Source: Candidatus Saccharimonadota bacterium (GTDB lineage: Bacteria; Patescibacteriota; Gracilibacteria; Absconditabacterales; Absconditicoccaceae). Taken from it: DNA of 32,000 nucleotides. Each line of letters opens with the position of its first letter. Positions within the stretch are counted from its first letter, which is position 1. A model generated the notes under the pieces. It did not search any database and was not told the DNA's origin. It saw only the letters and a program-made list of their open reading frames with translations. Location: positions 180,001 to 212,000 of the forward strand of contig CP006913.1 of NCBI GenBank assembly GCA_000503875.1, written 5' to 3'. Below are positions 1 through 32,000 of this stretch, piece by piece. The translations under genes were made by a program, and so were the position numbers.

Positions 1-373
1 GAACAGCAATATTCTCATCTACCTGTTTTTGTTGTTCAAGAAAACTTAATATAAATTTCTCTACATCATAACCATTTGCTAGCGCAAATTTTGTTTCTTG
101 TTTGTTGTTGCCCAAAAGAGTAAAGATGTAGCTATCTCAATTTTTTTGTATTTTAATATCTTTGAGATCTTTTACATTATTTTCATTTAGGGTTAGCAAA
201 AACTGGGCCTCATTGTTTATAAAACTCAATGGGGCAGTGTCTTTTACCTCTGAGATCTGGATTGTCTTACTATCCATTGTGTAATCGATAAATAAAAGTT
301 TCATTACCAAGTATATTCCAAAAAACTTTTCAATCAAAAAAAATCCACCTTTTATATAAAATGGATTTGACAA
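1..373 (-). CDS. hypothetical protein, partial (C-terminus runs off the left edge)
   Basis: ORF-track ORF 137..373 ends at TGA (137-139). With TGA read as Gly the frame stays open to position 2. Start is uncertain: TTG at 373 or an internal ATG. Confidence 0.45.
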
Positions 374-399
374 TTTATTTTTAAATGATTTAATATGTT

Positions 400-993
400 T
401 TAGCTATAAAGTTCGTTTTTTACCTGTAAAATAAATTTTTCACGCTGCTCTTCATCCAAAGATGGAATATCGTATAGTTTATAATGATTTATGACAGCTA
501 TCAAAAAGTCCATAAGAAGTGACGCATCCAAAGGGATATTGTCATGATATTTGATAGATAATTTTTTGATATAATTGATATATCATGTTAAATTCATGGG
601 TTCCTTGGTAAGTAGTTCTTCAAAAACTCAAGAAATTCAGATTTTTTTTGCTTCTTGTATATAAAAAGGAAAAAAGAATCAGATTACTACCAATGTATTT
701 ATTTTTTTTCTCAAATATGTTGTCCCTGTGGAAGGGTGTTTTGTTTTGAAAAAAAGTTCATATAAAAGTGTTATAAGTTTTTCATCTTTTATATTATTTA
801 TAAGAAAAGTAAGAAAACTTGCCAATTTAGCATTAGCTTGTTTATCTTGCTGTATTTGTTGATGAACTTGTTTTGCCTGTTTTGATTCTTCCTGGATTCT
901 TCTAGTAGCTTCTTCGGTTACTTTGTTGATATCTTCTCTAGGTGCTCATCCAATATCTAGTCCTTCTCAAAGGTTTCAAAATTCATTCGCCAT
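400..993 (-). CDS. hypothetical protein (197 aa)
   Basis: ATG at 993..991 and TAA at 402..400, 594 nt. Open only if about 6 in-frame TGA codons are sense. N-terminus reads MANEFGNLGEGLDIGGAPRED. No family recognised. Confidence 0.55.
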
Positions 994-1119
994 GTTTCCT
1001 TTCCTATAAAATAAAATGGCTATAATTATATATGTACCAATAGTTAAATTAGCTTGAAATTCAACACCAATTAAGTATATGATAAAACACTGCTATTTTT
1101 TTGTTGCAAAAAAAATCAA

Positions 1120-1206
1120 GGTGAGGTGGATGAGTGGCCGAAATCAACTCACTGCTAACGAGTCAGACGAGTAATCGTCTCGCGGGTTCGACTCCCGCCC
1201 TCACCG
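1120..1206 (+). tRNA. tRNA-Ser (anticodon GCU), class II with long variable arm
   Basis: Acceptor GGTGAGG/CCTCACC. Anticodon loop CTGCTAA with GCT at 1154-1156. Variable-arm hairpin GACGA-GTAA-TCGTC. T arm GCGGG-TTCGACT-CCCGC. Discriminator G. No encoded CCA. Confidence 0.9.
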
Positions 1207-1226
1207 AGTTGTGTAAACATACAATT

Positions 1227-1440
1227 AGACATGGCACCGCAAACGAAGTGCGTCCAGCTCCGCAGGATAGCTCAGTGATTAAGAGAGCATCTGTTGAGTT
1301 ACGGGAGATAAATAACCTCCCAAACTTATTATTATAGACATGGCACCGCAAACGAAGTGCGTCCAGCTCCGCAGGATAGCTCAGTGATTAAGAGAGCATC
1401 TGTTGAGTTACGGGAGATAACCTCCCAAACTTATTATTAT
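1227..1440 (+). repeat. two tandem tRNA-derived units (1227-1335, 109 nt; 1336-1440, 105 nt)
   Basis: The units are near-identical; the second lacks 4 nt (ataa) in the loop of a GGGAG..CTCCC hairpin. Each begins with agacatggcaccg, the same 13 nt that form the leader plus 5' acceptor strand of the downstream tRNA-Met. Each contains a canonical D-arm string TAGCTCAGT..GAGC but no 3' acceptor strand. Confidence 0.85.
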
Positions 1441-1446
1441 AGACAT

Positions 1447-1520
1447 GGCACCGTAGCTCAGTTGGTTAGAGCGCGCCTCTCATAAGGGCGAGGTCGGCGG
1501 TTCGAATCTGCTCGGTGCTA
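1447..1520 (+). tRNA. tRNA with CAU anticodon (elongator Met, or Ile2 if lysidine-modified)
   Basis: Cloverleaf: GGCACCG / TA / GCTC-AGTTGGTTA-GAGC / CGCCT-CTCATAA-GGGCG / AGGTC / GGCGG-TTCGAAT-CTGCT / CGGTGCT-A. CAT lies at 1481-1483. Pair 1-72 is G-U, so it is not an initiator-type tRNA. Confidence 0.85.
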
Positions 1521-1541
1521 AATTACCTAGAATGCCTGTCG

Positions 1542-1861: not shown

Positions 1862-1899
1862 TTTTTTCTAACAAACAATTTTATACTTAACACTATTTC

Positions 1900-3652: not shown

Positions 3653-6600
3653 TTAATAAGAAATTCCCAATTCCAAAGAGTATCCCCATGGATACTTTTT
3701 TTGTTTGTCCCAAAGAACGGCTTTTACGGTATCATCATTGGTAAGATCACTATCAACATCTACAAAAGGACAAGGACATTGTAAGCAAGGTGGGGTTGTT
3801 ACAAACAAACAATCTTTCATATCTTGAGGACAATTTAAACATGTTTCTCCAGCATCTTGTCATCCATTTCCGCAATTAGGTCATCATCATGGAATAATTG
3901 GTCAATCTATATCAGTAATATCTCCTAATCATGGTTGACCTGCAGGAGACCAGTTATTATCACAATATATTTCCAATCACAATTCAGGGCATCCATCATA
4001 ATCAGTAATTCCATTTCGTGATTCTGGAATAAGAGGACAAAGATCTTCCTTATCTGGAAAACTATCACCATCAGTATCTATAATAGGAGCAAGTCGATCA
4101 ATAGAGTCTTTATCAAAAGCTGTTTCCATTGCATCACCAATACCATTTTTATTTTGATCTCATTGATTGGGGTTGGGCATATATGGAGCATTATCTAATG
4201 TACAAATTCCTTTGAAATGTATTTTGAGAAGATCGGTATTGATCAGCGTTTGATTTGGACTTTTCGTAATAGTTGTTAGATAACTACAGTTTTTTGGAAC
4301 ATTTGGATTTATTGTTCCCAAGAGATTATTAATTCCATCGCCATCAATATCCATATCACAGATATCAGGTATACTATCTTTATCCATATCACAAACAAAA
4401 TCTAAGAGTGTTCCATCTAATTTTGATTGAAGACAGAAATCTTGTCCGCCTACAGCTAAAGTTGCTTGCGCAGAAAGCTGAGTACATTGATCCAAAGAAA
4501 GATTTGTTTGAGGATAATACACTCATGGATTCTTATAGATATGTTTATTTTCTAGAGGAAAAACGATACGATTGGAAAGAGGAAATATAGTGGAATTGTT
4601 ATCACCAGCAACAATATTTGCAAAAATAAGATCGGCAAAAGAATCTCCCAAAGGAAGTATTTTAAAAGTAAATGTTTGAAAAGTAGTTAATTCCAACGAA
4701 GAAGGAAGAAGTTGAATTGCATATGAAGAAAACAAATTATTTGATCCTACAAAAAGAGTAATCATATTTTGAAGTCTAGTTCCATCATCAAGAAAAATAG
4801 TTTGAAGAACAACTTTTTTCCCCACAGATTGATAACTATAACGAGTTGTTGTTAGTGTTGTTTCTATCGTTTCTCAGTCACCGAAATCCCATATAATACG
4901 AGAAACAGAAGAAGGAAGAAAATTAGATAATTTTGTTTCAAAAACAACTTCTTCATATTTTTCTGGAAGCAATGTTGAAGGCAATAACATGCTTCAATAT
5001 GCAGTATCTCATACACCAAATGAAAACAAAGTAGCTGCTACAATTTCTCATTTACGAATTGCTTTTATACTAATTGGATATGTTCCTGCTGTAATAAATT
5101 TCTTTTTGAGAACTGGCTTTTCTGTAGTAGCTGTTGCGCTTCAAAAAGTTCGTTCATAAGAATCGTGGTTACCCAATGCAGACAAAGAAAAAGATCATTC
5201 TCCTCAAACTGGAGCAATCAACGAAGTATTTAATGCATATAATCATTGTTTTTCATTGGTATCTCTTCAAACAATAATAGTAGTTTTTGCATAAGCATCA
5301 TTGGTTCATTTTCCTTTGGCAAAAAGGCGAATAGTATAAAGTCATGGACTGAAATAAGTATGAGAAATGCTAGATCATGATCCAATAGATCAATCACCGA
5401 AATCCCATTTAAGATCTGTTACTGGTCATTTACTTAATGCACCAAATGTGATGGTTTTTGGTACGGAACCTTCCATTTTCTGGATAGCAATACTCAAAGA
5501 TAAGTTCGCAGATAATTGTTCGCATGCATCACCAACTCAATTTCAATTAGTATCGGCTTGATCTTTATTGACAATAAATAAACAATTATCGATAGTAGGA
5601 GTCCAAAGCGCAACATTAACATTTCAGTTATCATCTAATATACCTATCGGATTTTTGATACCTTCATTATCAACGTCATCATCACAAACATCACCTATTT
5701 TATCTTTATCATAATCTCTTTGTTGAGGATTGTAGCCAGTTGGACAGCTATCTTGAGCATTATCAATTCCATCACAATCATAATCGTTATTGAAAGAACA
5801 TCCAATCAAACTATTAATTCTAGAAAGAATTTCTACAGCCAATTTTCCGTCAATTAATGTTCCTATATTATATTTTACAGCATCATCTAGGGAAATCATT
5901 TGTTGTCTATAGAGCACATTAAGTTCTGCAACAGGCCAATATCCTTCCTTAATTTTTTCAAAAGGAATCATACCACATTCCTTGAGATTAAACATACAAT
6001 ATTTGAGATAAATATTTAATTCATTTGCATCCTGGAGACTGCATATTTGTTTACCGCATTCTTTAGATCTTTTTTCAATTATTTTGATATCATCTTCACT
6101 AAGATTTTTATAAGCGTAACTTCGAGAATTTAAATCATCTACCCATGCCTCCACAGTATTCCAATTAAGTGAATAAATTGGATACAAATATTTGGCTATC
6201 ATATTGATAATTACTTGCAAAAATTCAGCTTTGGTAGTATTTCTTGTTCCACAAAATTCACCCGCACAGACAGGACTGGTTTCCAAGGGATAACCTCTCA
6301 TATACGTTCTATCCCCAACGTATGCTACACAATAATAATAACTTTTTTTATTGTACGAAGCCTGTCTATATAAAATATCATCAAAATCCCTTCCAGGCTC
6401 TGCAGTAAATTTTTGCCAAAAAAGATTAGTATATCTATTGAGATAATCATTATTTGGAACGATACAATCTTTACATTCTACAGCATTCAATAATCTAGTT
6501 AGCTCATAACGGTTAATTCCTGTATTGGAAAGTATAGAATTAATAGGAATATTCATGTTTAGAAGCTGCTCTACAAAACCAGAAAAATCTGCACGGGCTT

Positions 6601-6664
6601 GTGTTCCTGCATATAATCACAAAAAAGCAACTATACCATAGATAAATATTCTGATTTTTTTCAT
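3653..6664 (-). CDS. large secreted/cell-surface protein with thrombospondin type-3-like Ca-binding repeats (1003 aa)
   Basis: ORF-track pieces 5624..6556, 4523..4825 and 4160..4522 share one frame. I found no in-frame TAA or TAG between 6664 and 3656. Signal peptide MKKIRIFIYGIVAFLGLYAGTQA. Repeated DxDxDGxxDxxDxCP motifs (DYDCDGIDNAQDSCP, DMDIDGDGINN, DTDGDSFPDKEDLCP). Cys-rich C-terminus. Confidence 0.8.
3677..3702 (+). terminator. terminator hairpin for the ferredoxin gene
   Basis: GTATCC-ccat-GGATAC followed by a T run. It lies inside the last codons of the convergent 3653..6664 gene. Confidence 0.45.
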
Positions 6665-6822: not shown

Positions 6823-6872
6823 CTAATGTCAAATAAAACAAATAAAACTAATGTCAAATAAAACAAATAAAA
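6823..6872 (+). repeat. perfect 25-bp tandem duplication
   Basis: ctaatgtcaaataaaacaaataaaa occurs twice (6823-6847 and 6848-6872), duplicating an ATG. Confidence 0.9.
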
Positions 6873-7417: not shown

Positions 7418-7539
7418 TATTATAGAAAAGAAACATCTTGCGTATATGCAGATGTTTTTTAAAATTTGGAAATTACATAGCATTTTATTGGAAAATGTGT
7501 ATATGTTGGGAAGCTAAAATTTATACTCTATATTTTTCA

Positions 7540-9880: not shown

Positions 9881-11269
9881 TTACCAACACAAGAAACATC
9901 TTTTCTTTTTTCTCAACCACCATTTAGACTGCCTAGTTAGAAACCTTGCGTCATCCTTATTTTTTAACAATTCTTTTACTGTTTCTTCCAAGAAAATGGT
10001 ATTTTGACTTCCTTTTAAAACCAAGAGAGGAGCGTTATCTTCAAATTCTTTATTTGCAAGCATTTTTTTGAGAATAGATGAAGTCTCCAAACAGTTTGAA
10101 AATCTATACATTTTACTTGGTTCATATCATATTTTATTGAGTTCGTCAGCCATCACGGAAGTCATCTGTTCTCATATCAAGAAAATACGATCAGCGACTT
10201 GGCTAACATAAGCAGCTAATAATCTATGTTCACGTTCGGTAAAATCCCCAAGTTCTCTCATATCTCACAGTACCAACCACAATGGACGCTCTTTATAAAG
10301 CTCTTGTTTGAGTGACCACACCGTAGAAATAATACTTTTCATACTCAAAGGCGATGCATTGTAAGTCGAATCAAAAAGAATGGTGTTTTGAATTCCAGGA
10401 AACACAGAAAATCTTCCCGGCTGCAAGATATAATTTAACGAAAGATTGCTTGCGAAATCTTTTTTATGATAATTCTCCATTGATTTAAAGAATTTTTTAC
10501 TTGCTTTATATCAAACAATATCTGCAATCGCTAGCGCTACTCAAATATATCCATAATTAGATTTTCCAAAAAGATTGGTAGTTATGGTATGTTTTTTTTC
10601 TTTTATCCATAGATTAAATTCTGAATTTGGAATTTCGTTTGTTTTTTCAAAGACAATATTATCGAAATAAATATCAGATTTTGTTTTATGTCCTTCTGTT
10701 TGATAGGTAAAGGTATCGATATCAATATGTTTTGCCAATTGCATAGCATAGTTATCATTGAAATTTAAGAAAGCAATTTCTTTGGTATTTTTGATCATTT
10801 TAACTTCTTCATGAGCGATAGCTGCAGGATCTCCAAATTGCTCACTATGCACAGCATCAATAGCAGTAAAGACACCAATATCAGGTTTGGCGATACTTAC
10901 CAAAAATTCCATTTCTTTGGGACGATCGATTCCATATTCCAAGACAATAATATCATACGGCTTTTTCCCAAACAAAAGTTTCCAAGAAGTTTTAATCAAT
11001 ACCCAAAGGAAAATAATTGGGTTTGGTGACCAGGATTCAATTTCAAAAATACTGAGAGATAAGCCTAATTCTCCGTTGAAATTTTTGCTAGATGTCGAGA
11101 TTTTCAGTGTAGGAAAAAAATGCTGAAGTGTCTGAGTAATAATCATACGACATGATGTTTTACCTACACTTCAATTGATTCCTATAATATATGGATTATG
11201 CTTTTTGAGATAACGGCGAGCCAATCATCAAAGAAGTTGATAATAGAGAAAAAGGATCTTTTGTTTCAT
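9881..11269 (-). CDS. murF: UDP-N-acetylmuramoyl-tripeptide--D-alanyl-D-alanine ligase (Mur ligase family)
   Basis: ORF-track pieces 9881..10111, 10265..10480 and 10541..11146 are in one frame. N-terminal extension reaches the ATG at 11269. P-loop GINGSVGKTS; YGIDRPKEMEF; DAVHSEQFG. 462 aa. Confidence 0.85.
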
Positions 11270-11272
11270 GAA

Positions 11273-12529
11273 TTAATCGAAGTCTTTTTCAAATAAAAGA
11301 GTAATAATAGCAGCAATAGGTACTGCAAGAAGTACACCAACCAATCCCATAATCATACCTCATAAGATCATGGAAATAAAGATAACAACTGTATTTATTC
11401 CAAGTGTTTTATTCATAAGTAAGGGAACCATAACATTATTTTCGATAGTATTAATCAAGAATGTAATTCAAAATAACAATGCTCATCCCCAGAATCAAAC
11501 ACCCATTAATCAAGCCAGGATAACTGGGATACTTCCAACAATAGGACCTATATAAGGAATAATATCCAGCAATCCAAAAATCAATGATACGGACACTTTA
11601 TTGGGAATGCTTATTCCAAAAAGCTCCAAAATCCAAAGAGAAACATATAAAGCAATAGCCATATATAAAGAAAGTAATAATCTTGATTTTAACCAGATTC
11701 CAAGTTTTTTATAAATTTTTTCGAGTTTAATATATATGTATTTGTATTTTCTTTCACCGCCTAAACTAGCAATAAATTTCATCACAGAAACTTTTTCTAT
11801 AGAGAAGAGAACTGAAAGGGTAATAACGATCAAACTTTTGGTCAAAAACGTTGCAAATCAAGTTACAAAATTTACTGCAAAATTTCCAATCATTTGTGCG
11901 TAGCTTGACCACATATTAGATAATTCAACCAAACTTGTTTGTAATTTGGTTTGTATATTAGTAATAAGTGCGGGATCAGAAAAATTATGGAAAATTTCTT
12001 TCTCAACATAGTGAGAGAGGAGTCCACTTGATCTCAATACTTCAACCAATCCCTTATCTTGCAAAGCTAATTGAAAAGCATTCATTTTTATCAAGAAAAG
12101 ATTGATAATTTCAGTCATTTGATTTGCTACAAACGGAACAATCAATACAACTCCAGAAAGTAAGAAAACAGCAAGAAGAAAATATGCAATAGTAATAGAA
12201 ATTCCTCTAGTAGCCTTCCAACGTTGGAAAATATCAATAACTGCTTCCATAGCAATAGAAACGATATATGCTGTTAGGATAAGATACAATACATCAAGCG
12301 ATTTAAATAAAATAAATCACAAGAAAACCATAAGCATCCCAACAAACCAAAATTTGATAAAGTGTCTGTTGGTAATCATCATGTCTTTTTTTTCTTTTTT
12401 TTCTTCTTCTTGAAGAGATTGGATTTGCTTTTCCAATTTTTTGATTTCATCAAGTTGTTGCTTATCAGCTGGAGAAATCTTGCTTAAAAAGTTTTTTCCA
12501 TGGTCTATTAGATTGCCGAAGAGTTTCAT
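11273..12529 (-). CDS. AI-2E family transporter (PerM/UPF0118-like permease)
   Basis: Pieces 12317..12529, 11858..12289 and 11510..11845 are in one frame. Multi-TM protein with LDIIPYIGPIVGSIP and C-terminal GLVGVLLAVPIAA motifs. TAA at 11273-11275. Confidence 0.8.
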
Positions 12530-13627: not shown

Positions 13628-14566
13628 ATGGAAAAAGTGATTATCATAGGATCAGGACCTGCAGGTCATACCGCTGCAATCTATGCGGCGAGGGCGAATA
13701 TGCAGCCACTGATGTTCGAAGGCTTTATGGCAGGAGGTATCGCCGCCGGAGGACAACTTACTACCACTACCGTTATCGAGAATTTTCCAGGATTCCCTAC
13801 GGGAATAGACGGAAACGAATTGATGATAAATATGAGACAACAATCAATAAACTCTGGTACGAGAATCGAAACCATGACCGTTGATAAAATTGATCTGAAT
13901 TCTTCTCCTTTCAAAGTAGAAGCAGGATGACAAATATACGAAGCTAAATCATTGATTATAGCTACTTGAGCTATCGCTCAACGTATGGGAATTCCCGGTG
14001 AAGACAAATATTGGCAAAAAGGAATCTCAGCATGCGCGGTATGCGACGGCGCCTTGCCATTATTCCGCAACAAACCATTGATCGTAATCGGAGGAGGTGA
14101 CTCAGCAATCGAAGAAGCAAATCATCTTACTCACTTTGCATCAAAAGTTATTATACTTGTTAGAAGAGATCAATTTAGAGCTTCGCAAGCGATGCAAAAA
14201 AGAGCATTAGAAAATCCCAAAATAGAAATTATGCGAAATACTGAGGCTCTGGAAGCCGTAGGAGAAAATTTGCTTACGGGAGTTAAAGTAAAAAACAATA
14301 CAACCAACCAAGAATCATTGATTGAAGCAGCTGGACTCTTTTATGCCATCGGGCACAAACCCAATACCGCATTCTTAGAAGGACAAGTTGCTACAGATGA
14401 TATGGGATATATCGTTACGTCGCCAGGTACCACCCAAACCTCTGTGCCCGGAGTTTTCGCCGCAGGAGATGTGCAAGACAAAAAATATCGTCAAGCAATT
14501 ACCTCTGCTGGTACGGGATGTATGGCAGCTTTGGAAGCTGAGAAACGAATATCTGAACACAACTAA
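13628..14566 (+). CDS. trxB: thioredoxin-disulfide reductase
   Basis: [22 protein letters not shown] redox centre, [17 protein letters not shown]. Pieces 13628..13930 and 13985..14566 join through TGAs at 13928 and 13967. Confidence 0.95.
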
Positions 14567-14597: not shown

Positions 14598-14951
14598 ATG
14601 AGTGTACTTCATATCGAAAGCACAGAACAATTTAAAACACAAGTATTAGAATCTGATACATTATCAGTTATTGATTTCCGAGCAGAATGGTGTGGACCAT
14701 GTAGAATGCTAGGACCTATTATGGAAGAACTTGCAGTTGATAATGCAGGTAAAGCCGTACAAATTGTAAAAATCAATGTAGACGAACAACCAGCATTAGC
14801 AGGTTCATTTGGTGTTTCTTCTATTCCAGCTGTTTTCTTTGTAAAAGGAGGAAAAGTAGTTGATGCAATGGTAGGAGCTATGCCAAAAAATATGTTTCAA
14901 GCAAAAATTGATCAACACGCAGGTGCTGCAGAACAAAAAGCTGCAGCTTAA
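14598..14951 (+). CDS. trxA: thioredoxin
   Basis: WCGPC active site. 117 aa from the ATG at 14598, inside the longer ORF-track ORF 14388..14951. Confidence 0.95.
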   Translation: MSVLHIESTEQFKTQVLESDTLSVIDFRAEWCGPCRMLGPIMEELAVDNAGKAVQIVKINVDEQPALAGSFGVSSIPAVFFVKGGKVVDAMVGAMPKNMFQAKIDQHAGAAEQKAAA

Positions 14952-18011: not shown

Positions 18012-18944
18012 ATGATAACCAATATATTTGTTTTAGCAGTTTCAATATTTTTGATTATAAAATGAGCTATGCTCTCTACAAAATATGCAGTAAAATTTGC
18101 AGAAAATTTTCAAGTATCAAAATTTCTTGTAGGATTAATTATTGTGGCGGTTATTTCTATTTTACCAGAAACATTTATTTCTATTAATTCAGTTCTTAGC
18201 GGTGTTCCAGAATTGTGATTAGGAACACTATTTGGTTCTAATGTTGCTGATCTTACCTTAGCGTTTGGAATTATTGTTCTCTTTTCAGGAAGAAAAAATA
18301 TAAAAATAGAAAATAAAATATTAAAAAGTAATGCGATCTTCCCGTTCTTTTTGTTGTTACCGATTATTTTATGATTGGATGGTCATTATGGACGATTAGA
18401 ATGATTGGGTCTTATTTTGATTGGTGTTTTCTTTTATTATTATGCATTTAAAAATGGAGTAAATGAGGCTCCAGCAATAAGAGAAAAAGGGAATCGCCTC
18501 ACTAACTTTTTATGTTTGATAGGAAGTATTTCGTTATTGCTTGTTGGAGCTCATTTCGCAGTTGATTCAGGTGTACAAATAGCAACAACATTAGGATTTA
18601 GTCCAGTATTGATATGAATTTTGGTGATAGGATTGGGAACAGTAATTCCAGAGCTTCTTTTTGCTTTTCAAGCGGTGAAAAAATATGATGATTCTTTGGC
18701 TGTAGGAGATATTTTGGGAACGGTCCTTGCTGATGCAACCATAGTTGTAGGAATTATAGCAATTATTAAGCCATTCTATTTTCCTTGGAAAATTATCGGT
18801 ATAACGTGAGCGTTTATGATGATGGCAGCATTTATTACTTCGTATCTTATGCATACAGGGAAAACGCTAACCAAAAGAGAGGGCGTCTTTCTTATTCTGT
18901 ATTGGCTAACCTTTGTTATTACTGAGTATTTCGTAAATACCTAA
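18012..18944 (+). CDS. Ca2+/Na+ (CaCA family, YrbG-like) antiporter
   Basis: Two alpha-repeats, GLGTLFGSNVADL and GLGTVIPELL..GDILGTVLAD. 310 aa with about 10 TM segments. Pieces 18405.. and 18621.. are in frame with the ATG at 18012. Confidence 0.85.
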
Positions 18945-19229: not shown

Positions 19230-21809
19230 ATGAATTGGTACCAATTATCTCTTTCATCTTTGTATAAAGAGCTTAAGACAACTTCTCATGGATTATCTTC
19301 CAAAGAAGCGCTTTTGAGATTGGAGACCCATGGAAAAAATATGATCAAGGAAAAAGAAAATAATCCTGCGTGGAAAATATTTTTGAGTCAATTTACTTCG
19401 GCATTGGTACTTATTTTGTTGGCTGCTACTGTTGTTTCTGCTATTATTGGAGAAATAACTGATGCAAGTATTATTTTGGCGGTAGTTGTCCTCAATGCTG
19501 TTTTTGGATTTATTCAAGAATACAAAGCGGATAAAGCTATAGAATCGCTCAAAAAAATGGCAGGTCTCAAATCAAAAGTCCTGAGAGATGGAAAAGAACA
19601 TCTTATTGATTCGTCAGAATTAACTATTTGAGATATAATTCTCCTAGATACGGGAGATAAAATTCCTGCAGACGCCAGAATTATCGAAGCAGTAAACTTG
19701 GAAATCCAAGAATCTATCCTTACCGGAGAATCACTCTCGGTAGCAAAACATACGCAAGTGCTTGAAAAAGTAGGCGCACTTTGAGATATCAAAAATATGG
19801 TCTTTAGTGGAACAATTGTAACAAAAGGAAGGGGTAAAGCAGTTGTTTGTGCTATCGGTATGGATACGGAAATAGGAAAAATTGCAGAAATGATGCAGGA
19901 AACTCCAGACAAAAAGACCAATCTCGAAAAAAAACTCAATGGATTAAGCAAAGGACTTGGAATTGCAACTGTCTTTATTTGTATTATTATTTTTCTCACG
20001 TATTTTTTTGTTAGAGATATTGAAATTCATGAAGCATTTTTGATTGCGGTAGCCTTGGCTGTTGCTGCAATTCCAGAAGGATTACCTGCTGTTGTTACGA
20101 TTTCACTCTGACTTGGAGTCAAAAGATTCGTCAAAAAAAATGTCTTGGTAAGGAGGCTTTCCTCGGTAGAAACACTTTGATCGGTAAATGTCATCTGCAC
20201 AGACAAAACGGGAACGCTTACCAAAAACGAAATGACGGTAACCAAGTTATTTGTAAATAATCATATTGTTGATGTTACGTGAACAGGATACAAAATTGAA
20301 GGAGATTTTTCTCACAATCCAGATGATTTTATGACTTTGTTGGAAATTGGAATATTATGTAATAATTCTAAATTGGAAGGAGAAATGATTATCTGAGATC
20401 CTACCGAAGGAGCGCTCATTGTAAGTGCTTTAAAAGGAGGTATAGATCATCAAAATCTTTTGAAAACACATGAATGGAATGGAGAAAACCCATTTGATAG
20501 CGAAAGAAAAATGATGAGTGCTTTGTATATGCGTCAAAATCAGCAAATTATTTTTACCAAAGGAGCAATAGAAAATCTGCTTCCAAAGTGTAATCAAATA
20601 CTCATCAATGGAAAATTAGAACCATTGGATCATAAAGAAAAAGAAAAAATATTACATATCGCAGGAGAATTTTCTGCACAAGCACTCAGAGTTCTTTGAT
20701 TTGCCTATGGTTATGGAAATGAAGAACAACAGCTAATTTTTGTAGGACTGCAAGCAATGATTGATCCACCAAGAGATGAAGTCAAAGACGCAATGCAAAG
20801 ATGTGCAACAGCAGGAATTAGAGTAATTATGATTACCGGAGATAACTTGATTACTGCCAAAGCAATAGCAACAGAACTATGAATCAAAGGAGAGGCAATG
20901 ACCGGTGAGGAATTTGAAAAAGCTCCAAACAAAGAGCAACTTCTCCAATCTATAGGAATCTTTGCAAGAGTAAATCCAGCACATAAACAGACTATCGTCA
21001 AAATATTACAATCTCAAGGAAATGTCGTAGCGATGACCGGAGATGGAGTAAATGATGCTCCAGCATTGAAAATGGCTGATATCGGAATAGGAATGGGAAT
21101 CACGGGAACCGATGTCACCAAAGAAGCCGCAGATATGATTTTGATTGATGATAATTTCACTTCAATCGTAAACGCAGTCCAAGAAGGAAGAGGAATCTAT
21201 GACAATATCCAAAAATTTGTAAATTATCTCTTGGCAAGTAATATTGGAGAAATTCTTATTCTTTTTGTTGCGAGTTTGGCAGGACTTCCTTTGCCACTTT
21301 TGGCAATACACTTGCTCTGGATTAATTTAGTTACCGATGGACTACCAGCCATAGCGCTCGGCATAGATCCTGTTAATCCTGATGTTATGAAGCACCATCC
21401 AAGAAAATCATCAGAGTCTATCGTTTCGCAAAAAATGATGATCAATATCGCTATCCTATCTTCTATTATGACAATTGCAGCGTTATTCCTATTTTTCAGA
21501 CATCATGATACTGATATTGTCCAAGCAAGAAGTGGCGTTTTTGTTCTCCTTGTGTTTATTGAACTTATCAAAATACAAATAATCAGATCACAATATGGAT
21601 TGGGTATTCTTTCAAATAAACGATTGTTGTTGGCGGTAAGTGTTTCCATGGCTTTGGTATTGGCTGTGGTGTATATCCCAGGAGTTAATACCTTGTTTGA
21701 ACTAACACCATTATCTATGGATATTTGGATGGATATAGGAGTTGCAATATGAGTATTGATAATCGTTTGAATAGTATTGAGTAAATTTATGAGAAAAATA
21801 AGCAGATAG
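19230..21809 (+). CDS. P-type Ca2+-transporting ATPase (type IIA-like), 859 aa
   Basis: [23 protein letters not shown] and [13 protein letters not shown] motifs. Pieces 19230, 19797, 20460 and 20898 are in one frame with 10 sense TGAs. TAG at 21807-21809. Confidence 0.9.
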
Positions 21810-21880: not shown

Positions 21881-22936
21881 ATGAGAAAAGCAAAATTAAA
21901 AAGTGTAGGAGAAATCCCAGGAAGCATCGTGTATACTTGAGATAAAATGACTGCCGAATCTATTGTGCAGATGATTGAATACAACGAAAAAGAATATACA
22001 GAAACAGCTATTTCTGATTTTCATCAATGCATCGAAAAACACAAAGGTAACGTAAAATGGATCGATTTCATCGGAGTAGATCAAACAAATGATCTTAGTG
22101 AAATAGGTGCTTTGTTTAATATCCATGCTCTGACATTGGAAGATATTGCAAATATTAAACAACGTCCAAAATATGAAGATATGGAAGACTATCTTTTTTT
22201 GACACTCAAAATGTTTTGTTATATCCATGAAGAAAAGCGTTTGAAAGAAGAACAAATAAGCTTTGTATTGGGCAAAAATTACGTGATTTCTTTTCAAGAA
22301 AATGAAGATAGCGATGATTTTGAAAATATAAAAGACCGCATCCGCAAAGGAAAAGGAAGAATTAGAAAAATGAACGCTGATTATTTGATGTATTCTATTG
22401 TGGATACTATTATTGATAATTATTTCGTTGTCTTGGAACATATCGAAGATGAGGTAGAGGAATTGCAAGATGAATTGATGAAAGATCCAAATCCCAAAAC
22501 ATTGCATAAGATCCAGAATCTAAAACAGAATCTTATTATTTTGCGTAAATCTATCTGGCCCGTAAGAGAAATTTTGGGCGCATTGGAAAGAACAGAATCT
22601 GATTTAATTGACGATAGACTTCAAGCATATCTTAGAGACGCTTACGATCATACTGTGCAAATTATCGATACCATAGAAACGTTTAGAGATATTATTGCTG
22701 GGTCACTAGATATCTATCTTTCTAGTCTTAGTAATAAGATGAATCAAGTGATGAAAGTATTGACGGTAATTAGTACGATTTTTATTCCCCTTACCTTTAT
22801 AGTAGGAGTTTATGGAATGAATTTCAAATATATGCCAGAACTTACTATGAAACGAACCTATCCAGCACTTTGGATTATTATGATAAGCATCGCTGGATGA
22901 ATGCTTCGATTCTTTAGAAAAAAGAAATGGATGTAA
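21881..22936 (+). CDS. corA: magnesium/cobalt transporter CorA
   Basis: N-terminal PGSIVYTGDK, YGMNF (GMN) motif, two C-terminal TM segments and a basic tail. Extends ORF 21947..22900 at both ends through sense TGAs. Confidence 0.9.
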
Positions 22937-24078: not shown

Positions 24079-24088
24079 CTCTAGAATT

Positions 24089-26017: not shown

Positions 26018-26470
26018 TTAGTTTAAGACAGGATCAACCTCAATCTGTGGTGGACAGTCACTTATATCTTCAATACTTTCCAAACAGGGTTCACACTCAT
26101 CATATACCCAAGCATAAAGGCAAAAGAATGGAGGAAGAAGAAGTTTTTTTACAACTTCCTTATCCGGTCCCTTGTAGATAAATGCTTTGTCTTTCTCAAG
26201 GCTAACTAGAATAGCAACCGAATTTGATTTTAATTGCGAAAGAATGAATTGATTTGCATCTCGATATCCCTCAATTAAAAGCGGTATTCTGACAGTTAAT
26301 CCTAGCTCTTGAACAACAAAAAGTTGTTTCATAGAAGTGATCAATTCCTTTATTTCTTCTTTGATACAGGCATCTGTGCATTTACTGCTACAGGTATTGC
26401 ATCCTAAGATAATTTTTTCATCTAACTCTGGGCCTTTCCCGGCTAGTAGTACTAAAAATTTATCATTCAT
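26018..26470 (-). CDS. KGPD-motif small protein, paralog B (Cys-rich variant)
   Basis: MNDKFLVLLAGKGPE.., CNTCSSKCTDAC, AILVSLEKDKAFIYKGPD, and a C-terminal ..DECEPC..DC..VLN. No TGA codon. Confidence 0.75.
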   Translation of the reverse strand: MNDKFLVLLAGKGPELDEKIILGCNTCSSKCTDACIKEEIKELITSMKQLFVVQELGLTVRIPLLIEGYRDANQFILSQLKSNSVAILVSLEKDKAFIYKGPDKEVVKKLLLPPFFCLYAWVYDECEPCLESIEDISDCPPQIEVDPVLN

Positions 26471-27076: not shown

Positions 27077-27108
27077 AAAACCCGCCTACAATTAGGCGGG
27101 GCTTTTTT
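27077..27108. terminator. bidirectional terminator
   Basis: CCCGCCT-acaatt-AGGCGGG hairpin with a flanking A run and T6 run. Confidence 0.65.
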
Positions 27109-27604
27109 AATTTGCACACGTAGTAATTTTGGGAAGATTCTCCAAATCTCGTAGATCTCCCAAATGAAGAATTTCAAGAGATAACCCCGTATATCGAAAG
27201 TTATATAACACCAAGAAATTAGGTATATATAATTCTTGAATACGAGTAGGATCCGGTCCTCGGTAGAGATATCCTTTTTTGGTAACAATATTTACCAAGA
27301 TAAGTACTTTAATACTTTCATCAGGGAGAAGTTCTTGAATAAGTTCGTTTGCGTCTTCAAGACAAGCAAACAAAACAGGGAAATCAAGAGCCATTTTTTC
27401 TTGTTCGATAAACATGTATTTCCCGATAGCAAATCCCATTGAAAAGATAATATGAGGAATGCATTCTGATGGTTCTTCACAATGCTTACAATTTTCTTTA
27501 ATATATTCCTCAATATTTCCTGACTGCTTAAATACGTGTTGAATTTCGACTACTTCCTCATTGAGAGGCTGTTGTCCGACAAATACGACAAATGGAGTCT
27601 CCAT
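27107..27604 (-). CDS. KGPD-motif small protein, paralog C
   Basis: METPFVVFVGQQP.., NCKHCEEPSEC, VLILVNIVTKKGYLYRGPD, and a C-terminal ..TTCAN. No TGA codon. Confidence 0.75.
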   Translation of the reverse strand: METPFVVFVGQQPLNEEVVEIQHVFKQSGNIEEYIKENCKHCEEPSECIPHIIFSMGFAIGKYMFIEQEKMALDFPVLFACLEDANELIQELLPDESIKVLILVNIVTKKGYLYRGPDPTRIQELYIPNFLVLYNFRYTGLSLEILHLGDLRDLENLPKITTCAN

Positions 27605-28017: not shown

Positions 28018-28359
28018 ATGGATATTAAAGAGCTGCAAAAACTTATTTTAGCTTTTAGAGATGCTAGAGATCGAAAACAATTTCATAATCCAAAAGATCT
28101 CGCGACCGCTATTGCAATTGAAGCTGGAGAATTACAAGAAAAATTTCTTTGGAAGTCACAAGAAAAATCATACGAAATAGGAAAAAATGATCCAGAAGTT
28201 AGCGAAGAAGTCGCAGATATTCTAAATTTTCTATTACTTTTCGCAGAAGAATGCAATATAGACCTAATCAAGGTTTCTTTGGATAAATTAGAAAAAAATA
28301 ATAAAAAATACGATGCGGAGAAAGCAAAAGGAAGGAGTGATAAATATAATAAACTTTAA
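28018..28359 (+). CDS. MazG-like nucleotide pyrophosphohydrolase (dCTPase/all-alpha NTP-PPase family)
   Basis: FRDARDRKQFHNPKDLATAIAIEAGELQEKFLW...EEVADILNFLLLFAEECNIDL...KLEKNNKKY carries the EExxE..D metal-binding signature of MazG-domain proteins. Confidence 0.8.
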   Translation: MDIKELQKLILAFRDARDRKQFHNPKDLATAIAIEAGELQEKFLWKSQEKSYEIGKNDPEVSEEVADILNFLLLFAEECNIDLIKVSLDKLEKNNKKYDAEKAKGRSDKYNKL

Positions 28360-28374
28360 TTTTCTTAAACTTTC

Positions 28375-29967
28375 ATGTCAACAATAATTACTGAACATCC
28401 ATTTAATAAAAGTTATGCAGATAGTTTTACTTTTAACGAACGAAACTATAATTGGCCTGTCGTGTATATTTTAAAATGACAAGAATATATTTATATTTGA
28501 GAAACATCTAATATATTTAAAAGAACTCACGACCATTTAAAAAATGAAGAAAAAGTAATACGTTTGAATAATATGTTTGTTCTTTATGATATAGAATATA
28601 ATAAATCTGCTACATTAGATATTGAATCTCAATTAATTCAATATATTTCTGCTGAAAATTCATTTAAATTACAAAATAAAAATGATGGTTTAAAGGATCA
28701 TCACTATTACGATCGTGAAAAATATATTGCTAAGTTTGAAGAAATTTGGAAAGAACTTATAAAGGAAAAAATAGTAAAAAAAGATCTAAACGAAATAAAA
28801 AACAGTGATTTGTTTAAATATTCTCCATATAAAGCTTTAAATACAGATCAATATGAAATTGTATCAGATATTTATGAGCAGATTAAATTATGAAATAATT
28901 GAACATATATAATTAAATGAGAACCTTGAACTTGAAAGAGTGTTGTCGCTAGTTATTTGATTAAATACTTAAAGTGAAAAGAAGAAACAAAAAATTTGAA
29001 AATCTGACTTGTTGTTCCAATGGCTTCGCTAAGATCTACTTTTAAAAAGGTATTTAAAAACATAGATTGATTAAAATCTTCAATGGTTATTTGACCAAAT
29101 GATTTAGCAAAAAATTATAATGTAAATAACAAAGTTCCATATGATATAATAATAGTAGATGAATCTCATAGATTACAAAAGAGAAAAAATATTACTAATT
29201 ATAAAGCATATGATGATGTTAATTCAAAGTTGGGATTGTCAAAAGATTCTACACAACTTGATTGGGTTTTGAACTTATCTAAAATTCAAATATTATTGTA
29301 CGATAGCAATCAATCAATTAAGCCAGCAGATGTTAATCAGAATGATTTTGCCAAAATAGAAAGTGCAAAATCATATGAATTAAAAAGCCAAATGAGAGTG
29401 AAGTGATGAAATGAATATTTAGATTTTGTTACCAATTTATTTGATTGATGAAGAACTGAATTTGATAAAATCAAAAACTATGATTTTAAGATATATGATA
29501 ATTTCAGTGAATTTAGAAGTGATATTATGTGAAAAGACAAAGAATTTTGATTATCTAGAATTGTTGCAGGATATGCACGACCTCGAAGATCAAAAGACAA
29601 TCCTAATGAATACGATATAGAAATTGATTGAATAAAAATATTTCGAAATTCAACAAATATTGATTGGCCCAATTCCCCAAATGCTTTGAATGAAGTATGA
29701 TGTATCCATACTGTGCAGTGATATGATTTGAATTATGTATGAGTTATTTTATGAGAAGAATTATCTTATGATAAGAATACATGAAAATTTATAATCAAGA
29801 AAGAAAACTATCACGATAGTAAATGAAAAATTTGAATTGATGATGAATATGAACTGGAGAGATATATAATAAATATTTATAAAACATTACTTACCCGCTG
29901 AATATTATGAACATATGTATATATAGTTGATAAAGATTTGAGAGAATATTTTAAAGGGAAAATTTAG
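28375..29967 (+). CDS. GIY-YIG-like nuclease domain fused to a DUF2075 P-loop NTPase/helicase-like protein (530 aa)
   Basis: N-terminus VVYILKGQEYIYIGETSNIFKRTHDHL. Walker A GEPGTGKS. Walker B IIIVDESHRL. DUF2075-type C-terminus RIVAGYA..VGCIHTVQGYDLNYVGVILGEEL. 27 sense TGA codons by my count. Only 28564..28893 appears in the ORF track. Confidence 0.75.
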
Positions 29968-29973
29968 AAGTAA
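29875..29973 (+). repeat. 99-bp direct repeat, copy 1 (3' end of the DUF2075 gene)
   Basis: atttataaaacattacttacccgctgaat...gggaaaatttagaagtaa. 95/99 identical to 30771-30869. Confidence 0.9.
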
Positions 29974-29997
29974 TTTTTTATTTCATCATAGAAACAC

Positions 29998-30768
29998 ATG
30001 CGTTATCTCATTATGTTGCTTATGCTTTTTACATTTCTTTTCGGGTCAGTAAGTTTTGCTCATCCTGGTAGAACAGCGTCAGATGGATGTCATTATTGTA
30101 GAACTAATTGTGATTCTTGGTGAGTGGCTTGGAATCAAAGACATTGTCATTGAGGTTCAACAACGCCTAGCTATACACCTCCGCCTGTTTATCAACCAAC
30201 GCCAACTGAGAAATGTCAATCGTCATACTGATCAAACTCCTATTATAATTCTACTTCTAACTCTTGTGATTGTAACTATTGATATGAGCTAAACTCAGCT
30301 AAAACCTATTGTGTAATAGAAAAGACTAAAACACCAACAGAGGAATGTAAAGAAACATATTGATCAAACTCCTATTATGATACCACATCTGATGTTTGTA
30401 AGTGTGTATCTTGATATGAGCTAAACTCAACCAAAACTTCTTGTGTAATAGAAAAGGAATGTAAAGAAATATATTGATCAAACTCCTATTATGATAGTAC
30501 ATCTAATGCTTGTGAGTGTATATATAGATATGAACGAGATTCAGCTAAAAAAGATTGCATTAAATCGAAGATAATTGAAGAAAAAGCTAAGACACCTACT
30601 GAAAAGTGTCAAGATAAATATTGATTAAACTCTTATTGATTAGAGAGCACTGATTGATTAGATGATTGTTATTGTAAGAATTGATATCAATGGTCTTTAA
30701 ATAATACTAGTTGTGTTCTTAAAAAGAAGAAAACACGATGGAATTATATAAAAGATTTTTTTAATTAA
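29998..30768 (+). CDS. secreted YHYH-like N-terminal domain protein with four Cys-rich tandem repeats (256 aa)
   Basis: Signal peptide MRYLIMLLMLFTFLFGSVSFA. HPGRTASDGCHYCRTNCDSWGV..HCHGG. Four repeats of the type C.(E/Q)xYGSNSYYxxTSxxCxCxxGYELNSxKxxC. 11 sense TGAs. Confidence 0.7.
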
Positions 30769-30770
30769 AC

Positions 30771-30869
30771 ATTTATAAAACATTACTTACTCGCTGAATA
30801 TTATGAACATATGTATATATAGTTGATAAAGATTTGAGAGAATATTTTAAAGGAAAAATCCAGAAGTAA
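30771..30869 (+). repeat. 99-bp direct repeat, copy 2 (orphan DUF2075 3'-end fragment)
   Basis: Begins 2 nt after the stop of the 29998 gene. In this copy the TAG of copy 1 is CAG. Confidence 0.9.
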
Positions 30870-30894
30870 AATTTTAATATATTATAAATGAATA

Positions 30895-31242
30895 ATGAGT
30901 CTAAAACGGAAATTAACCCTGTCTTGATGTTTAACATTATTTAGTACAATAGCATTAAGCGTGTGAGCTACTTATTTCTCCTGAATTGATAAGTATTATC
31001 GACTTTTTATTTTATGAATTGTTTTTTGAACTGTTCAGATCTTGTTAAGTATTTTTCATAAAACAATAGAAGAAGAGTGGTATGAACAAGAAAAAAATAA
31101 TCATGCTGCAGTTAGAAGAAAAGAATGATATATGTCCGAACTAGAAGGAGCTTGCTTATATTGAGCAACAGAAGCAATAAAAAAATGAGATTTAGATGAA
31201 GCAAAAAAACTGAGCGATTTAAAGAATAGCTTTTTAAAATAA
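30895..31242 (+). CDS. small membrane protein, hypothetical (115 aa)
   Basis: ATG..TAA is open only with 8 sense TGAs. Two hydrophobic segments followed by a charged helical tail. Confidence 0.45.
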
Positions 31243-31270
31243 ATCTTTTATAAATATTATTGAAATTATA

Positions 31271-32000
31271 ATGAAAATAAGATATTTAGAAAAATTTGAA
31301 AAATCTTTTGAAAATATATTTGGTAAAAATATAGAGATTTTGAATAAAATTGAAAAGTTATGAGCAGAATATTTATTGTCTGTATCGAAACTTATAGATA
31401 AGAACAAACAAATATATATGTGTACATTAATTCCATGAACTAGATTGTTTTTTTATAAAAAAGAACATAGTATCATTTTATTAGACATTATTTCTATAGA
31501 CAAGGATAAAAAAATAGATTTTTTAGAAAAGAATGTGGTTAAAGAAACAAAAAGAAAAAAAATAAATAGAATAATAATGTTTATTTTATTTGTTTTGTTA
31601 ATAATAGTTATAATAGAGGGATCAAACCAACTTTCCGAAGTATATAAACAAAATGCAATAATCAAGAATGATTTATGATTAGTAGATTGACAACTTAGCA
31701 ATGAAGAGAAAAATATAATTACCGATAATGGTTTTTTTACATGAAATAATTATTCTAATTATACATGATCTATGTTTATAAGAGATGATAATACATGTGA
31801 TTTATTATATTCATGAGATTATAAAGAACTTATAATACGAGAAAATTTTAATACGCCTTCATTAGAAACATTGAGATCTACAGATTGATATCTTTCATAT
31901 TCTAAAGAATTTGAAATTCCTAAGTGAATAGAAAAAGCTTGGTTATGTATAGAATCAGATTTTAATGAAATAGGAAATTCTAAAAAGAATTATGCAACAA
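31271..32000 (+). CDS. hypothetical protein, partial (runs off the right edge)
   Basis: In frame with ORF 31445..31678, with 9 sense TGAs. The N-terminal ~70 aa weakly resemble a RelE/ParE-like fold (..RLFFYKKEHSIILLDIIS..). A TM segment IIMFILFVLLIIVII follows, then a further domain. Confidence 0.5.

Follow-up and report, generated by a model that had tools for sequence, protein, structure and literature searches.

The 32,000-nucleotide stretch of DNA analyzed here (the window) is very probably a segment of the chromosome of candidate division SR1 bacterium RAAC1_SR1_1, or of an essentially identical strain, that departs from the standard genetic code at least twice: UGA is read as glycine and CGA appears to be read as tryptophan. 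The strain is assigned from the identity of a protein and from identity to two other assemblies of the same population. The window's DUF2075 protein matches P148_SR1C00001G0209, a protein of RAAC1_SR1_1 (phylum Candidatus Absconditibacteriota), at 503 of 503 non-TGA positions, and the public protein has glycine at all 27 TGAs. The nearest DUF1015 relatives bear Absconditabacteria names, and the GC content of 0.31 agrees with the published value for RAAC1_SR1_1 (PMC3812714). An earlier sequence-only reading had taken the DNA for an Absconditabacteria-type genome and its recoding for known biology; the protein identity bears out the first point, and the second is correct, since Kantor et al. (2013) reported UGA as glycine for the RAAC1_SR1_1 genome itself (PMC3812714).

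Open frames across TGA

Treating TGA as a sense codon, so that TAA and TAG are the only stops, lengthens the longest open frame in the window from 330 codons to 1004. Under the same stops, 100 dinucleotide-preserving shuffles gave no frame above 272 codons; frames that stay open for 100 codons or more hold 16038 codons in the window and 2855 on average in the shuffles. With TAG or TAA freed in place of TGA, the longest frames were 330 and 362 codons, which rules out reassignment of either. Because the shuffles stop at 272 codons and neither of the other stops gives a comparable gain, the lengths of the frames opened by TGA read-through are not due to chance. The features that bear on UGA are these:

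1..32000, both strands: whole window; 36 tiled genes, GC about 0.31, read here with UGA as glycine and CGA as tryptophan
3653..6664, minus strand: secreted TSP3/PKD-repeat protein, 1003 aa, 27 TGA, 4 CGA
3881-3889, minus strand: triple TGA of the TSP3/PKD protein, TGATGATGA in IP-GGG-PNCGNG
9881..11269, minus strand: MurF-like Mur ligase, 462 aa, 8 TGA
11171-11173, minus strand: Mur ligase P-loop TGA, GIN-TGA-SVGKT; the Gly of GVTGSSGKT / AVTGSNGKT in solved structures
11273..12529, minus strand: AI-2E family transporter, 418 aa; 7 TGA, all spanned by a full-length Pfam match
13628..14566, plus strand: trxB, 312 aa
13928-13930, plus strand: trxB TGA at a variable column
13967-13969, plus strand: trxB TGA of IIAT-TGA-A (ATGA motif); 42/43 standard-code homologs have Gly, relatives have TGA/GGA/GGG
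18012..18944, plus strand: Na+/Ca2+ exchanger family protein, 310 aa, 6 TGA; two-stretch Pfam match across the TGAs
19230..21809, plus strand: P-type Ca2+-ATPase-like pump, 859 aa, 10 TGA
20178-20180, plus strand: ATPase TGA of VETL-TGA-S, upstream of DKTGT; Gly in both solved pumps
21881..22936, plus strand: CorA, 351 aa
24630..25979, plus strand: DUF1015 protein, 449 aa, TGG absent throughout
28375..29967, plus strand: DUF2075 / SLFN-g3 helicase, 530 aa
28918-28935, plus strand: DUF2075 Walker A, TGA-E-P-TGA-T-TGA-K-S; all three glycines TGA

The TGA-as-sense frames cover the window, and the read-through lengths given by the sequence-only reading were reproduced (trxB 312, Mur ligase 462, ATPase 859 and CorA 351 aa, the last from its ATG), alongside the 1003-aa protein. 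The TGAs that it had quoted at 3881-3889, 11171-11173, 13967-13969, 20178-20180 and 28918-28935 are all in frame. It was also right that the supplied list of open reading frames was mis-coded: the biggest entry under the standard code is 317 aa. Its label murF for the Mur ligase holds at the level of the family, murF being the best NCBIfam model, but the score of 176 bits lies below the cutoff of 288.6.

The refined gene set contains 160 in-frame TGAs among 9336 codons, or 29% of its glycine codons. That all re-derived genes end in TAA or TAG, as had been claimed, is true by construction (34 of the 34 genes with a 3' end inside the window); the C-termini of CorA and trxB, moreover, coincide with the ends of solved homologs. 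Ten conserved proteins match Pfam profiles end to end across their TGAs. Public records of this DNA differ in the same respect, with full-length gene calls in the ENA record and shattered calls in the NCBI-derived one.

Under table 11 nearly every gene looks fragmented, as it would if the code were standard and the genes were true pseudogenes with nonsense mutations, or contained isolated selenocysteine or programmed read-through sites. However, all 160 interruptions are TGA, with no TAA, TAG or frameshift among them; frames run open for up to 1004 codons; and the TGAs are conserved or exchanged for GGN in relatives whose proteins are 62-99% identical. The number of sites is also far above any selenocysteine usage, and they align to glycine. 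Pseudogenization, selenocysteine and programmed read-through are thus refuted by TGA-only interruptions, long frames and glycine alignment, and we regard a standard code as practically impossible.

Glycine rather than tryptophan at UGA

Homologous proteins from standard-code organisms indicate what UGA specifies. In the DUF2075 protein, where TGA supplies 27 of 31 glycine codons, 17 of the 27 TGA columns are glycine in at least 98 of 108 distant homologs. Over all its TGA columns, glycine makes up 63% of residues and tryptophan 1%; the few tryptophans probably come from homologs of recoded relatives that were translated with code 4. The three TGA columns of the DUF1015 protein are glycine in 41-52 of 61 distant homologs. 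Compared with two solved pumps, the ATPase TGAs fall on glycine in both structures (four columns) or in one (two columns), on alanine in both (two) or on variable columns (two), and never on tryptophan. The second TGA of the Mur ligase aligns to glycine or alanine, the first of CorA (residue 20) to the glycine of VYTG, and TGAs of the TSP3/PKD protein also occupy glycine positions of the PKD motif WDFGDG. In the alignments that had been proposed (trxB, murF, ATPase and DUF2075), the TGA columns are accordingly glycine, and none is dominated by tryptophan. Tryptophan is encoded by TGG, as the sequence-only reading had it: DUF2075 TGG columns are tryptophan in 430 of 432 cases, and the tryptophan of thioredoxin WCGPC is TGG.

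Codon exchange leads to the same answer. Across 38 ortholog pairs with five recoded relatives, 152 TGAs were aligned with a GGN codon and none with TGG; these counts pool related genomes and are not independent events. In these relatives, 62-99% identical in protein, TGA positions are either conserved or swapped with GGN. Genetic code 4, in which UGA is tryptophan, would account equally well for a GC content of 0.31 and plentiful in-frame UGA, and Prodigal chose code 4 for scaffolds in the original study (PMC3812714). Nevertheless, the homolog columns and the codon exchanges both refute it, as do the invariant glycines of the Walker A, P-loop, ATGA and VETLG motifs that are written TGA, and we consider it scarcely credible. 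On this comparative evidence UGA is a sense codon for glycine, with UAA and UAG as sole terminators.

Genes of lower GC write a larger share of their glycine codons as TGA (Spearman rho between gene GC and that share -0.60, p 1.6e-4). AT-biased mutation probably drives the change from GGA to TGA, no other glycine codon being so poor in GC.

Probable tryptophan at CGA

The sequence-only reading had assigned genetic code 25. Its UGA assignment stands, but table 25 is incomplete here, since CGA acts as a tryptophan codon. The window contains 36 in-frame CGAs (39 per 10,000 codons), and the informative ones lie in the following features:

13628..14566, plus strand, trxB: CGA at 14234-14236 (residue 203), Trp in 39/43, TGG in 3/3 recoded relatives
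14546-14548, plus strand: second trxB CGA; column W 20, Y 14, F 8
14598..14951, plus strand: thioredoxin, 117 aa
14679-14681, plus strand: thioredoxin CGA; conserved Trp of DF-W-AEWCGPC
21621, plus strand: lone ATPase CGA; Met or Tyr column
22853-22855, plus strand: CorA CGA; Trp of T. maritima PELRWKWGYP
22907-22909, plus strand: CorA CGA; transmembrane Val
24708, 24753, 25392, plus strand: DUF1015 CGAs; Trp in 56, 58, 59 of 61 distant homologs
27107-27604: orphan gene; three CGAs, two on Lys/Arg columns of a small family
28018..28359, plus strand: MazG-like pyrophosphatase, 113 aa
28072-28074, plus strand: MazG-like CGA; matches the conserved RGW/RDW Trp of solved dCTP pyrophosphatases
28441, plus strand: DUF2075 CGA; Phe/Tyr column
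29578, 29584, 29644, plus strand: DUF2075 CGAs; Trp columns (107-108/108)

Eleven CGAs, spanning about 6-7 conserved genes, fall on tryptophan-dominated columns (three each in DUF2075 and DUF1015, two in trxB, and one each in thioredoxin, CorA and the MazG-like protein), and none of them on an arginine column. A further four occupy aromatic or hydrophobic columns, and two, both in the orphan gene, lysine or arginine columns. In the same 38 ortholog pairs, CGA was paired 18 times with TGG, 16 times with CGA and never with AGA, AGG, CGT or CGC, codons that interchange among themselves and with lysine codons; AGA is the main arginine codon of the window. These patterns argue that CGA specifies tryptophan alongside UGG, making up about one-third of the window's tryptophan codons. 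CGG occurs in frame four times, always in unannotated proteins and at no informative column; its two aligned codons in relatives were AGA and GGG.

Plain table 25, with UGA as glycine and CGA still arginine, rules the public translation, in which P148_SR1C00001G0209 has arginine at the three CGA sites, and it would suit the two orphan-gene CGAs on lysine or arginine columns. Against it stand the 11 conserved-gene CGAs and the 18 exchanges with TGG, and it would also leave the DUF1015 protein without any tryptophan at three nearly invariant tryptophan positions. We therefore disfavor plain table 25 for this window and judge it highly improbable.

In the orphan gene, the CGA at 27260 lies in a column that is lysine in 7 of 7 other family members, and the one at 27149 in a column that is arginine in 5 of 7, where paralog A in the window and family member L006 have AGA. 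A search of 5.8 billion proteins found no orthologs, and only four remote family members were present among 1.84 billion representatives. The two columns could mean that CGA is ambiguous between tryptophan and arginine, or in transition, with some genes tolerating or using arginine; such ambiguity is, according to Shulgina and Eddy, excludable by experiment only (PMC8629427). But just two codons are of this kind, both in a fast-evolving orphan, whose third CGA, like the CGAs of other family members, lies on hydrophobic or aromatic columns, and exchanges between CGA and arginine codons were absent from the 38 ortholog pairs. Because AGA to CGA is a one-base change, the two could instead be tolerated arginine-to-tryptophan substitutions, and we hold ambiguous decoding to be very unlikely.

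A related thought is that the code may not be uniform in practice, and that two regions could hold genes that differ in origin or age. The stretch at about 26.0-28.0 kb, which contains the orphan gene, is strain-specific and missing from syntenic relatives; it could be a recent import from a donor with CGA as arginine, now mistranslated or ambiguously decoded. In the adjacent low-GC block at 28.4-32 kb, 81% of glycines are TGA, against 22% elsewhere, and this could be a mobile or defense block that is long-resident or adapted to code 25. We think this unlikely; were it true, codon usage would trace the passage of genes across a genetic-code barrier, or would be evidence of ambiguous decoding of CGA.

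Decoding and known codes

With ARAGORN and Rfam, neither the window nor some 60 kb of the same genome nor 12 loci of relatives yielded a tRNA(UCA), tRNA(UCG) or tRNA(CCG); the tRNAs of the searched loci were Ser-GCU, Met-CAU and Leu-GAG only. A 109-bp tandem unit between tRNAs had no Rfam match at E up to 1. The glycine identity elements expected of a tRNA(UCA) are G1:C72, C2:G71, G3:C70 and U73. Kantor et al. (2013) reported an additional tRNA-Gly(UCA) gene for the RAAC1_SR1_1 genome (PMC3812714), and UGA would accordingly be read by this dedicated tRNA. CGA and CGG may be decoded by tRNA(UCG) and tRNA(CCG) bearing tryptophan identity elements, as the literature predicts (PMC8629427, PMC13092985). 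Release factor 2 may have been lost from the recoded lineages, to judge by the contrast with two Gracilibacteria that retain UGA as a stop and have RF2 genes (Shulgina and Eddy, 2021; PMC8629427). RF2 goes unmentioned in Hanke 2014 and in the Vampirococcus paper.

Campbell et al. (2013) reportedly described the code of table 25, with UGA as glycine, in SR1. The window shares with NCBI table 25 (Candidate Division SR1 and Gracilibacteria) UGA as glycine, the stops UAA and UAG, UGG as tryptophan and a low-GC CPR genome; the table, however, keeps CGA and CGG as arginine. If CGA is tryptophan, 36 codons come out wrong under table 25, or 40 should CGG be tryptophan too, and arginine is left at about one-third of tryptophan positions. 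The misplaced arginines include that at the tryptophan three residues upstream of thioredoxin WCGPC.

A close counterpart is the code that Codetta predicted computationally for Absconditabacteria, with UGA to glycine and CGA and CGG to tryptophan (Shulgina and Eddy, 2021; PMC8629427). There too CGA falls on tryptophan columns and swaps with TGG, AGA is the main arginine codon, and the reported range of CGA frequency is close to that of the window. The window differs in its two arginine-like orphan-gene CGAs and in its four CGGs, which lend the predicted tryptophan reading no support; both analyses are computational. Code 4 (Mycoplasmatales, Entomoplasmatales, Hodgkinia, Nasuia, Zinderia and Stammera) shares a small AT-rich genome and the change of UGA from stop to sense, but there UGA is tryptophan and, going by Kantor et al. 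(PMC3812714), is read by a wobbling tRNA-Trp, not by an additional tRNA-Gly(UCA) as in RAAC1_SR1_1. Anaerococcus and the RFN20 Bacilli (Onthovivens in PMC13092985) also combine low GC with the capture of an arginine CGN codon by tryptophan (PMC8629427, PMC13092985); theirs is CGG alone, with CGA staying arginine, whereas the abundant reassigned codon of the window is CGA.

In summary, the earlier observation of UGA as glycine is correct, important for annotation and already known. The biology is not new, UGA as glycine having been published for this genome in 2013 and CGA and CGG as tryptophan predicted for the clade in 2021. What follows for annotation is that table 11 makes every ORF-based reading of the window wrong, table 4 places tryptophan at 160 glycines, and table 25 places arginine at 36 probable tryptophans, including neighbors of catalytic sites such as the tryptophan of thioredoxin DFWAEWCGPC. 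Other findings on the window need re-evaluation with TGA as glycine and CGA as tryptophan. All three kinds of mistranslation sit in public protein databases for this clade, and they thereby weaken profile searches and structure predictions.

Open reading frames and the meaning of UGA

Under the standard code the window falls apart into short ORFs, the largest listed being 317 aa. Once TGA is treated as sense, both strands are tiled by ORFs, including one for a 1003-aa protein, and the lengths of 312, 462, 859 and 351 aa that the sequence-only reading had given for trxB, the Mur ligase, the P-type ATPase and CorA are indeed reached. As a chance control we used 100 dinucleotide-preserving shuffles of the window. 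With TAA and TAG as the only stops, the longest open frame was 1004 codons, compared with at most 272 in the shuffles, so the frames opened by freeing TGA are not due to chance; freeing TAG or TAA instead gave a longest frame of only 330 and 362, respectively. Pfam profiles are spanned end to end across TGAs by ten proteins: thioredoxin reductase, the Mur ligase, the P-type ATPase, CorA, the SLFN-g3/DUF2075 helicase, a UvrB C-terminal part, an AI-2E transporter, a Na/Ca exchanger, DUF1015 and an HD protein. The refined gene set holds 160 in-frame TGAs in 9336 codons, and termination in the window is at UAA and UAG only. Five TGA positions quoted earlier from the sequence all proved to be in frame and in the contexts described:

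13967-13969, plus strand: in-frame TGA of trxB, in IIAT-TGA-A
11171-11173, minus strand: in-frame TGA of the Mur ligase, in GIN-TGA-SVGKT
20178-20180, plus strand: in-frame TGA of the P-type ATPase, in VETL-TGA-S
within 28918-28935, plus strand: Walker A of the DUF2075 helicase, with TGA at all three glycines
3881-3889, minus strand: in-frame TGAs of the PKD protein gene, TGATGATGA

To avoid bias toward any residue, each TGA was masked as X ahead of alignment, and the solved structures used for comparison came from standard-code organisms. In these structures the TGA of the trxB ATGA site, that of the Mur ligase P-loop (G-x-x-G-K-T) and the first TGA of CorA all correspond to glycine. When the ATPase was set against human SPCA1 and Listeria LMCA1, four TGA columns were glycine in both and two in one of them; the remainder were alanine (two) or variable (two), and none was tryptophan. 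Among 108 homologs of the DUF2075 protein (50-55% identity), 17 of the 27 TGA columns are glycine in at least 98, and the TGA columns overall are 63% glycine and 1% tryptophan; at TGG columns, tryptophan is found in 430 of 432 cases. The trxB ATGA site is glycine in 42 of 43 standard-code genomes. Finally, a codon alignment of 38 ortholog pairs with five recoded relatives, which needs no translation, gave 152 TGA-GGN pairs and not a single TGA-TGG pair. The glycines at homologous columns and these codon pairs show that UGA means glycine in the window, upholding the earlier assignment. The 1% tryptophan at the DUF2075 columns and the lack of TGA-TGG pairs exclude code 4, in which UGA is tryptophan.

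At every non-TGA position, the DUF2075 protein matches P148_SR1C00001G0209 of candidate division SR1 bacterium RAAC1_SR1_1, which is classified as Candidatus Absconditibacteriota; that record has glycine at 27/27 TGA sites. Exact-match look-ups also place the window DNA on a 264-kb sediment-metagenome contig (ENA ERZ936476, run SRR944699, PRJNA167727) and on the UBA MAG GCA_003543185.1. The RAAC1_SR1_1 genome is closed, with 1,177,760 bp and a GC of 0.31; its ORFs are fragmented under code 11, glycine is the most likely meaning of UGA, and it has a tRNA(UCA) gene that hardly differs from the ones in other SR1 genomes (Kantor et al. 2013, PMC3812714). Because that paper describes the same genome, the assignment of UGA to glycine is correct, and it had been reported before for exactly this genome.

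CGA codons and their exceptions

In Absconditabacteria, both CGA and CGG have been predicted to have moved from arginine to tryptophan (Shulgina and Eddy 2021, PMC8629427), and a 2026 NAR paper takes the reassignment as established in Absconditabacterales (PMC13092985). The window has 36 CGA, 4 CGG and 68 TGG codons in frame. CGA was masked before homolog columns were scored:

28375-29967, plus strand: DUF2075 helicase; three CGA sites, Trp in 107, 107 and 108 of 108 homologs; a fourth, Phe or Tyr in homologs
24630-25979, plus strand: DUF1015; three CGA sites at residues 27, 42 and 255, Trp in 56, 58 and 59, respectively, of the 61 distant homologs
14598-14951, plus strand: thioredoxin; one CGA site at residue 28, Trp of DF-W-AEWCGPC
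21881-22936, plus strand: CorA; first CGA site, Trp of PELRWKWGYP; second, a transmembrane Val
28018-28359, plus strand: MazG-like; one CGA site, Trp of RDW/RGW
13628-14566, plus strand: trxB; residue 203, Trp in 39/43 and TGG in 3/3 recoded relatives; residue 307, W 20, Y 14, F 8

Unlike CGA, the codons AGA, CGT and CGC lie in columns that are mostly arginine or lysine. In the pooled codon alignment CGA is paired with TGG 18 times, with CGA 16 times and with AGA, AGG, CGT or CGC never; these last four swap freely with each other and with lysine codons. The alignments show that CGA is read as tryptophan in the window. Since CGA falls on tryptophan columns and exchanges with TGG, translation by table 25 alone is still wrong for the window. 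The NCBI protein for the DUF2075 gene has arginine at three invariant tryptophan positions, and at the CGA columns of DUF1015 the only residues in public translations of clade relatives are R and W. The four CGG codons lie outside conserved columns, and their two codon pairs are with AGA and GGG.

The CGA sites that do not fit are in the last of three small paralogs of 144-165 aa:

24044-24478, minus strand: first paralog
26018-26470, minus strand: second paralog
27107-27604, minus strand: third paralog, an orphan gene

One CGA of the orphan gene is in a column that is lysine in 7/7 other family members, another in a column that is arginine in 5/7 (with AGA in one of the window paralogs and in the member from the relative contig L006), and a third in a hydrophobic column. 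No ortholog of this gene was found among 5.8 billion proteins, and it sits in a stretch missing from syntenic relatives. The arginine-like CGAs could possibly be tolerated Arg-to-Trp substitutions, AGA to CGA being a single base change; they might also reflect recent import from a donor in which CGA is arginine, or ambiguous decoding. Two codons are too few to decide between these.

All three paralogs have a common (F/Y)-(L/I)-Y-K-G-P-D motif, in which the third has CGA for the lysine codon. Pfam gave no match for them, and 1.84 billion representative proteins include just four remote relatives. The variable stretch covers about 26.0-28.0 kb of the window. The region downstream of DUF1015 looks like a variable, defence-type hotspot, because its DNA differs in each relative: L006 has a PCMT methyltransferase there, and the relative contig L007 has Mrr together with type I restriction-modification genes.

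Decoding and codon usage

According to the literature, UGA would be decoded by an extra tRNA-Gly(UCA) (PMC3812714, PMC8629427), and CGA and CGG by tRNA(UCG) and tRNA(CCG) with tryptophan identity (PMC8629427). RF2 was presumably lost in this lineage, as the two non-recoded Gracilibacteria retain it (Shulgina and Eddy 2021, PMC8629427). No tRNA(UCA), tRNA(UCG) or tRNA(CCG) was found in the window or in the ~60 kb of the same genome examined. The TGA share of glycine codons drops with rising gene GC (Spearman -0.60, p 1.6e-4, n = 35), which is consistent with AT-biased mutation that would drive GGA to TGA. This share is 6% in trxB and nil in ribosomal proteins, thioredoxin and the MazG-like gene; in a low-GC block (28375-32000) TGA encodes 55/68 glycines (69-89% per gene), versus 104/478 elsewhere in the window (Fisher p 2e-21).

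The window displays each testable defining feature of code 25 and, as far as CGA is concerned, those of the extended Absconditabacteria code, whereas the defining feature of code 4 is absent. It shows no departure from published descriptions.

Repeats, neighbouring genes and annotation

1229-1446: two tandem copies of a 109-bp unit, between tRNA-Ser(GCU) 1120-1206 and tRNA-Met(CAU) 1446-1521
8636-9370: stand-alone UvrB C-terminal ORF, its match to the 653-position UvrB model confined to positions 428-651
28375-32000: low-GC block of four genes, GC 0.21-0.32 per gene
29867-29980 and 30762-30876: 115-bp direct repeat, 93% identical

At its start, each 109-bp unit shares 13 bases with the sequence surrounding the 5' end of tRNA-Met, agacatggcaccg; it also carries a stretch resembling a D-arm and a GGGAG/CTCCC hairpin. 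Neither Rfam nor ARAGORN gave a match; the unit may be a tRNA remnant. The duplication breaks or collapses three assemblies: it is single copy in the ENA assembly, and the UBA and Logan contigs both stop inside it (about 1424-1429).

The UvrB-like ORF covers Helicase_C, the UvrB interaction domain and UVR. Its counterpart in the relative contig L009 (5478-6239) is a 253-aa gene with 92% identity that directly adjoins the gene of the PKD protein. This makes hyp188, the HD-domain gene and hyp126 (6851-8583 and 9414-9794) unique to this genome.

In the 115-bp repeat, the DUF2075 helicase gene's final ~100 bp and its stop recur directly downstream of the Cys-rich gene (29998-30768), a layout like that expected from an insertion of the Cys-rich gene accompanied by a long target duplication. 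The Cys-rich gene encodes a secreted protein of repeats C..YGSNSYY...C.C..GYELNS.K..C, with TGA at the same two glycine positions in repeat after repeat, and CGA in one repeat where two others have leucine and a fourth TGG (Trp). The MazG-like pyrophosphatase adjoins the helicase both in the window (28018-29967) and in L006 (12634-14848). By our reading the helicase N-terminus is GIY-YIG-like, and in PADLOC it is moderately similar to the defence helicases Nhi and AbiO (E about 1e-12); the two genes may be a defence pair.

With TGA as glycine and CGA as tryptophan, trxB scores 397 bits and passes its NCBIfam equivalog cutoff of 343. The gene first called murF is better named MurF-like: its 176 bits are below the NCBIfam family cutoff of 288.6. 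The window trxB is nearer to the thioredoxin reductases of yeast and Entamoeba (E about 1e-123) than to E. coli TrxR (about 1e-81). Copies about 70% identical are present in MAGs of standard code that carry the labels Omnitrophota and Spirochaetales (L010-L014), which hints at horizontal spread of this type.

The MAG contigs L008 (CAYRHE010000028.1) and L009 (CAZPFR010000012.1), both entitled 'uncultured Candidatus Peribacteria bacterium', are TGA-recoded, with 6 and 3 in-frame TGAs in trxB and long-ORF coverage of 0.05-0.15 under the standard code versus 0.88-0.98 when TGA is sense. The trxB genes of these contigs are 88-92% identical to that of the window, with which their regions are syntenic; they are probably mislabelled Absconditabacteria.

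Database translations within the clade disagree: at the same columns, TGA sites appear as G or W (code 25 versus code 4) and tryptophan sites as R or W (CGA read as arginine). The inconsistent records are P0001 (the NCBI DUF2075 protein), P0121-P0240 and the ENA calls on L004, the ENA record of the same DNA. For the 1003-aa gene, the ENA product gives only 'faint' PKD hits, compared with E = 7e-22 for the Gly/Trp translation. The practical value of the finding is that any other reading of the window has to take TGA as glycine and CGA as tryptophan.
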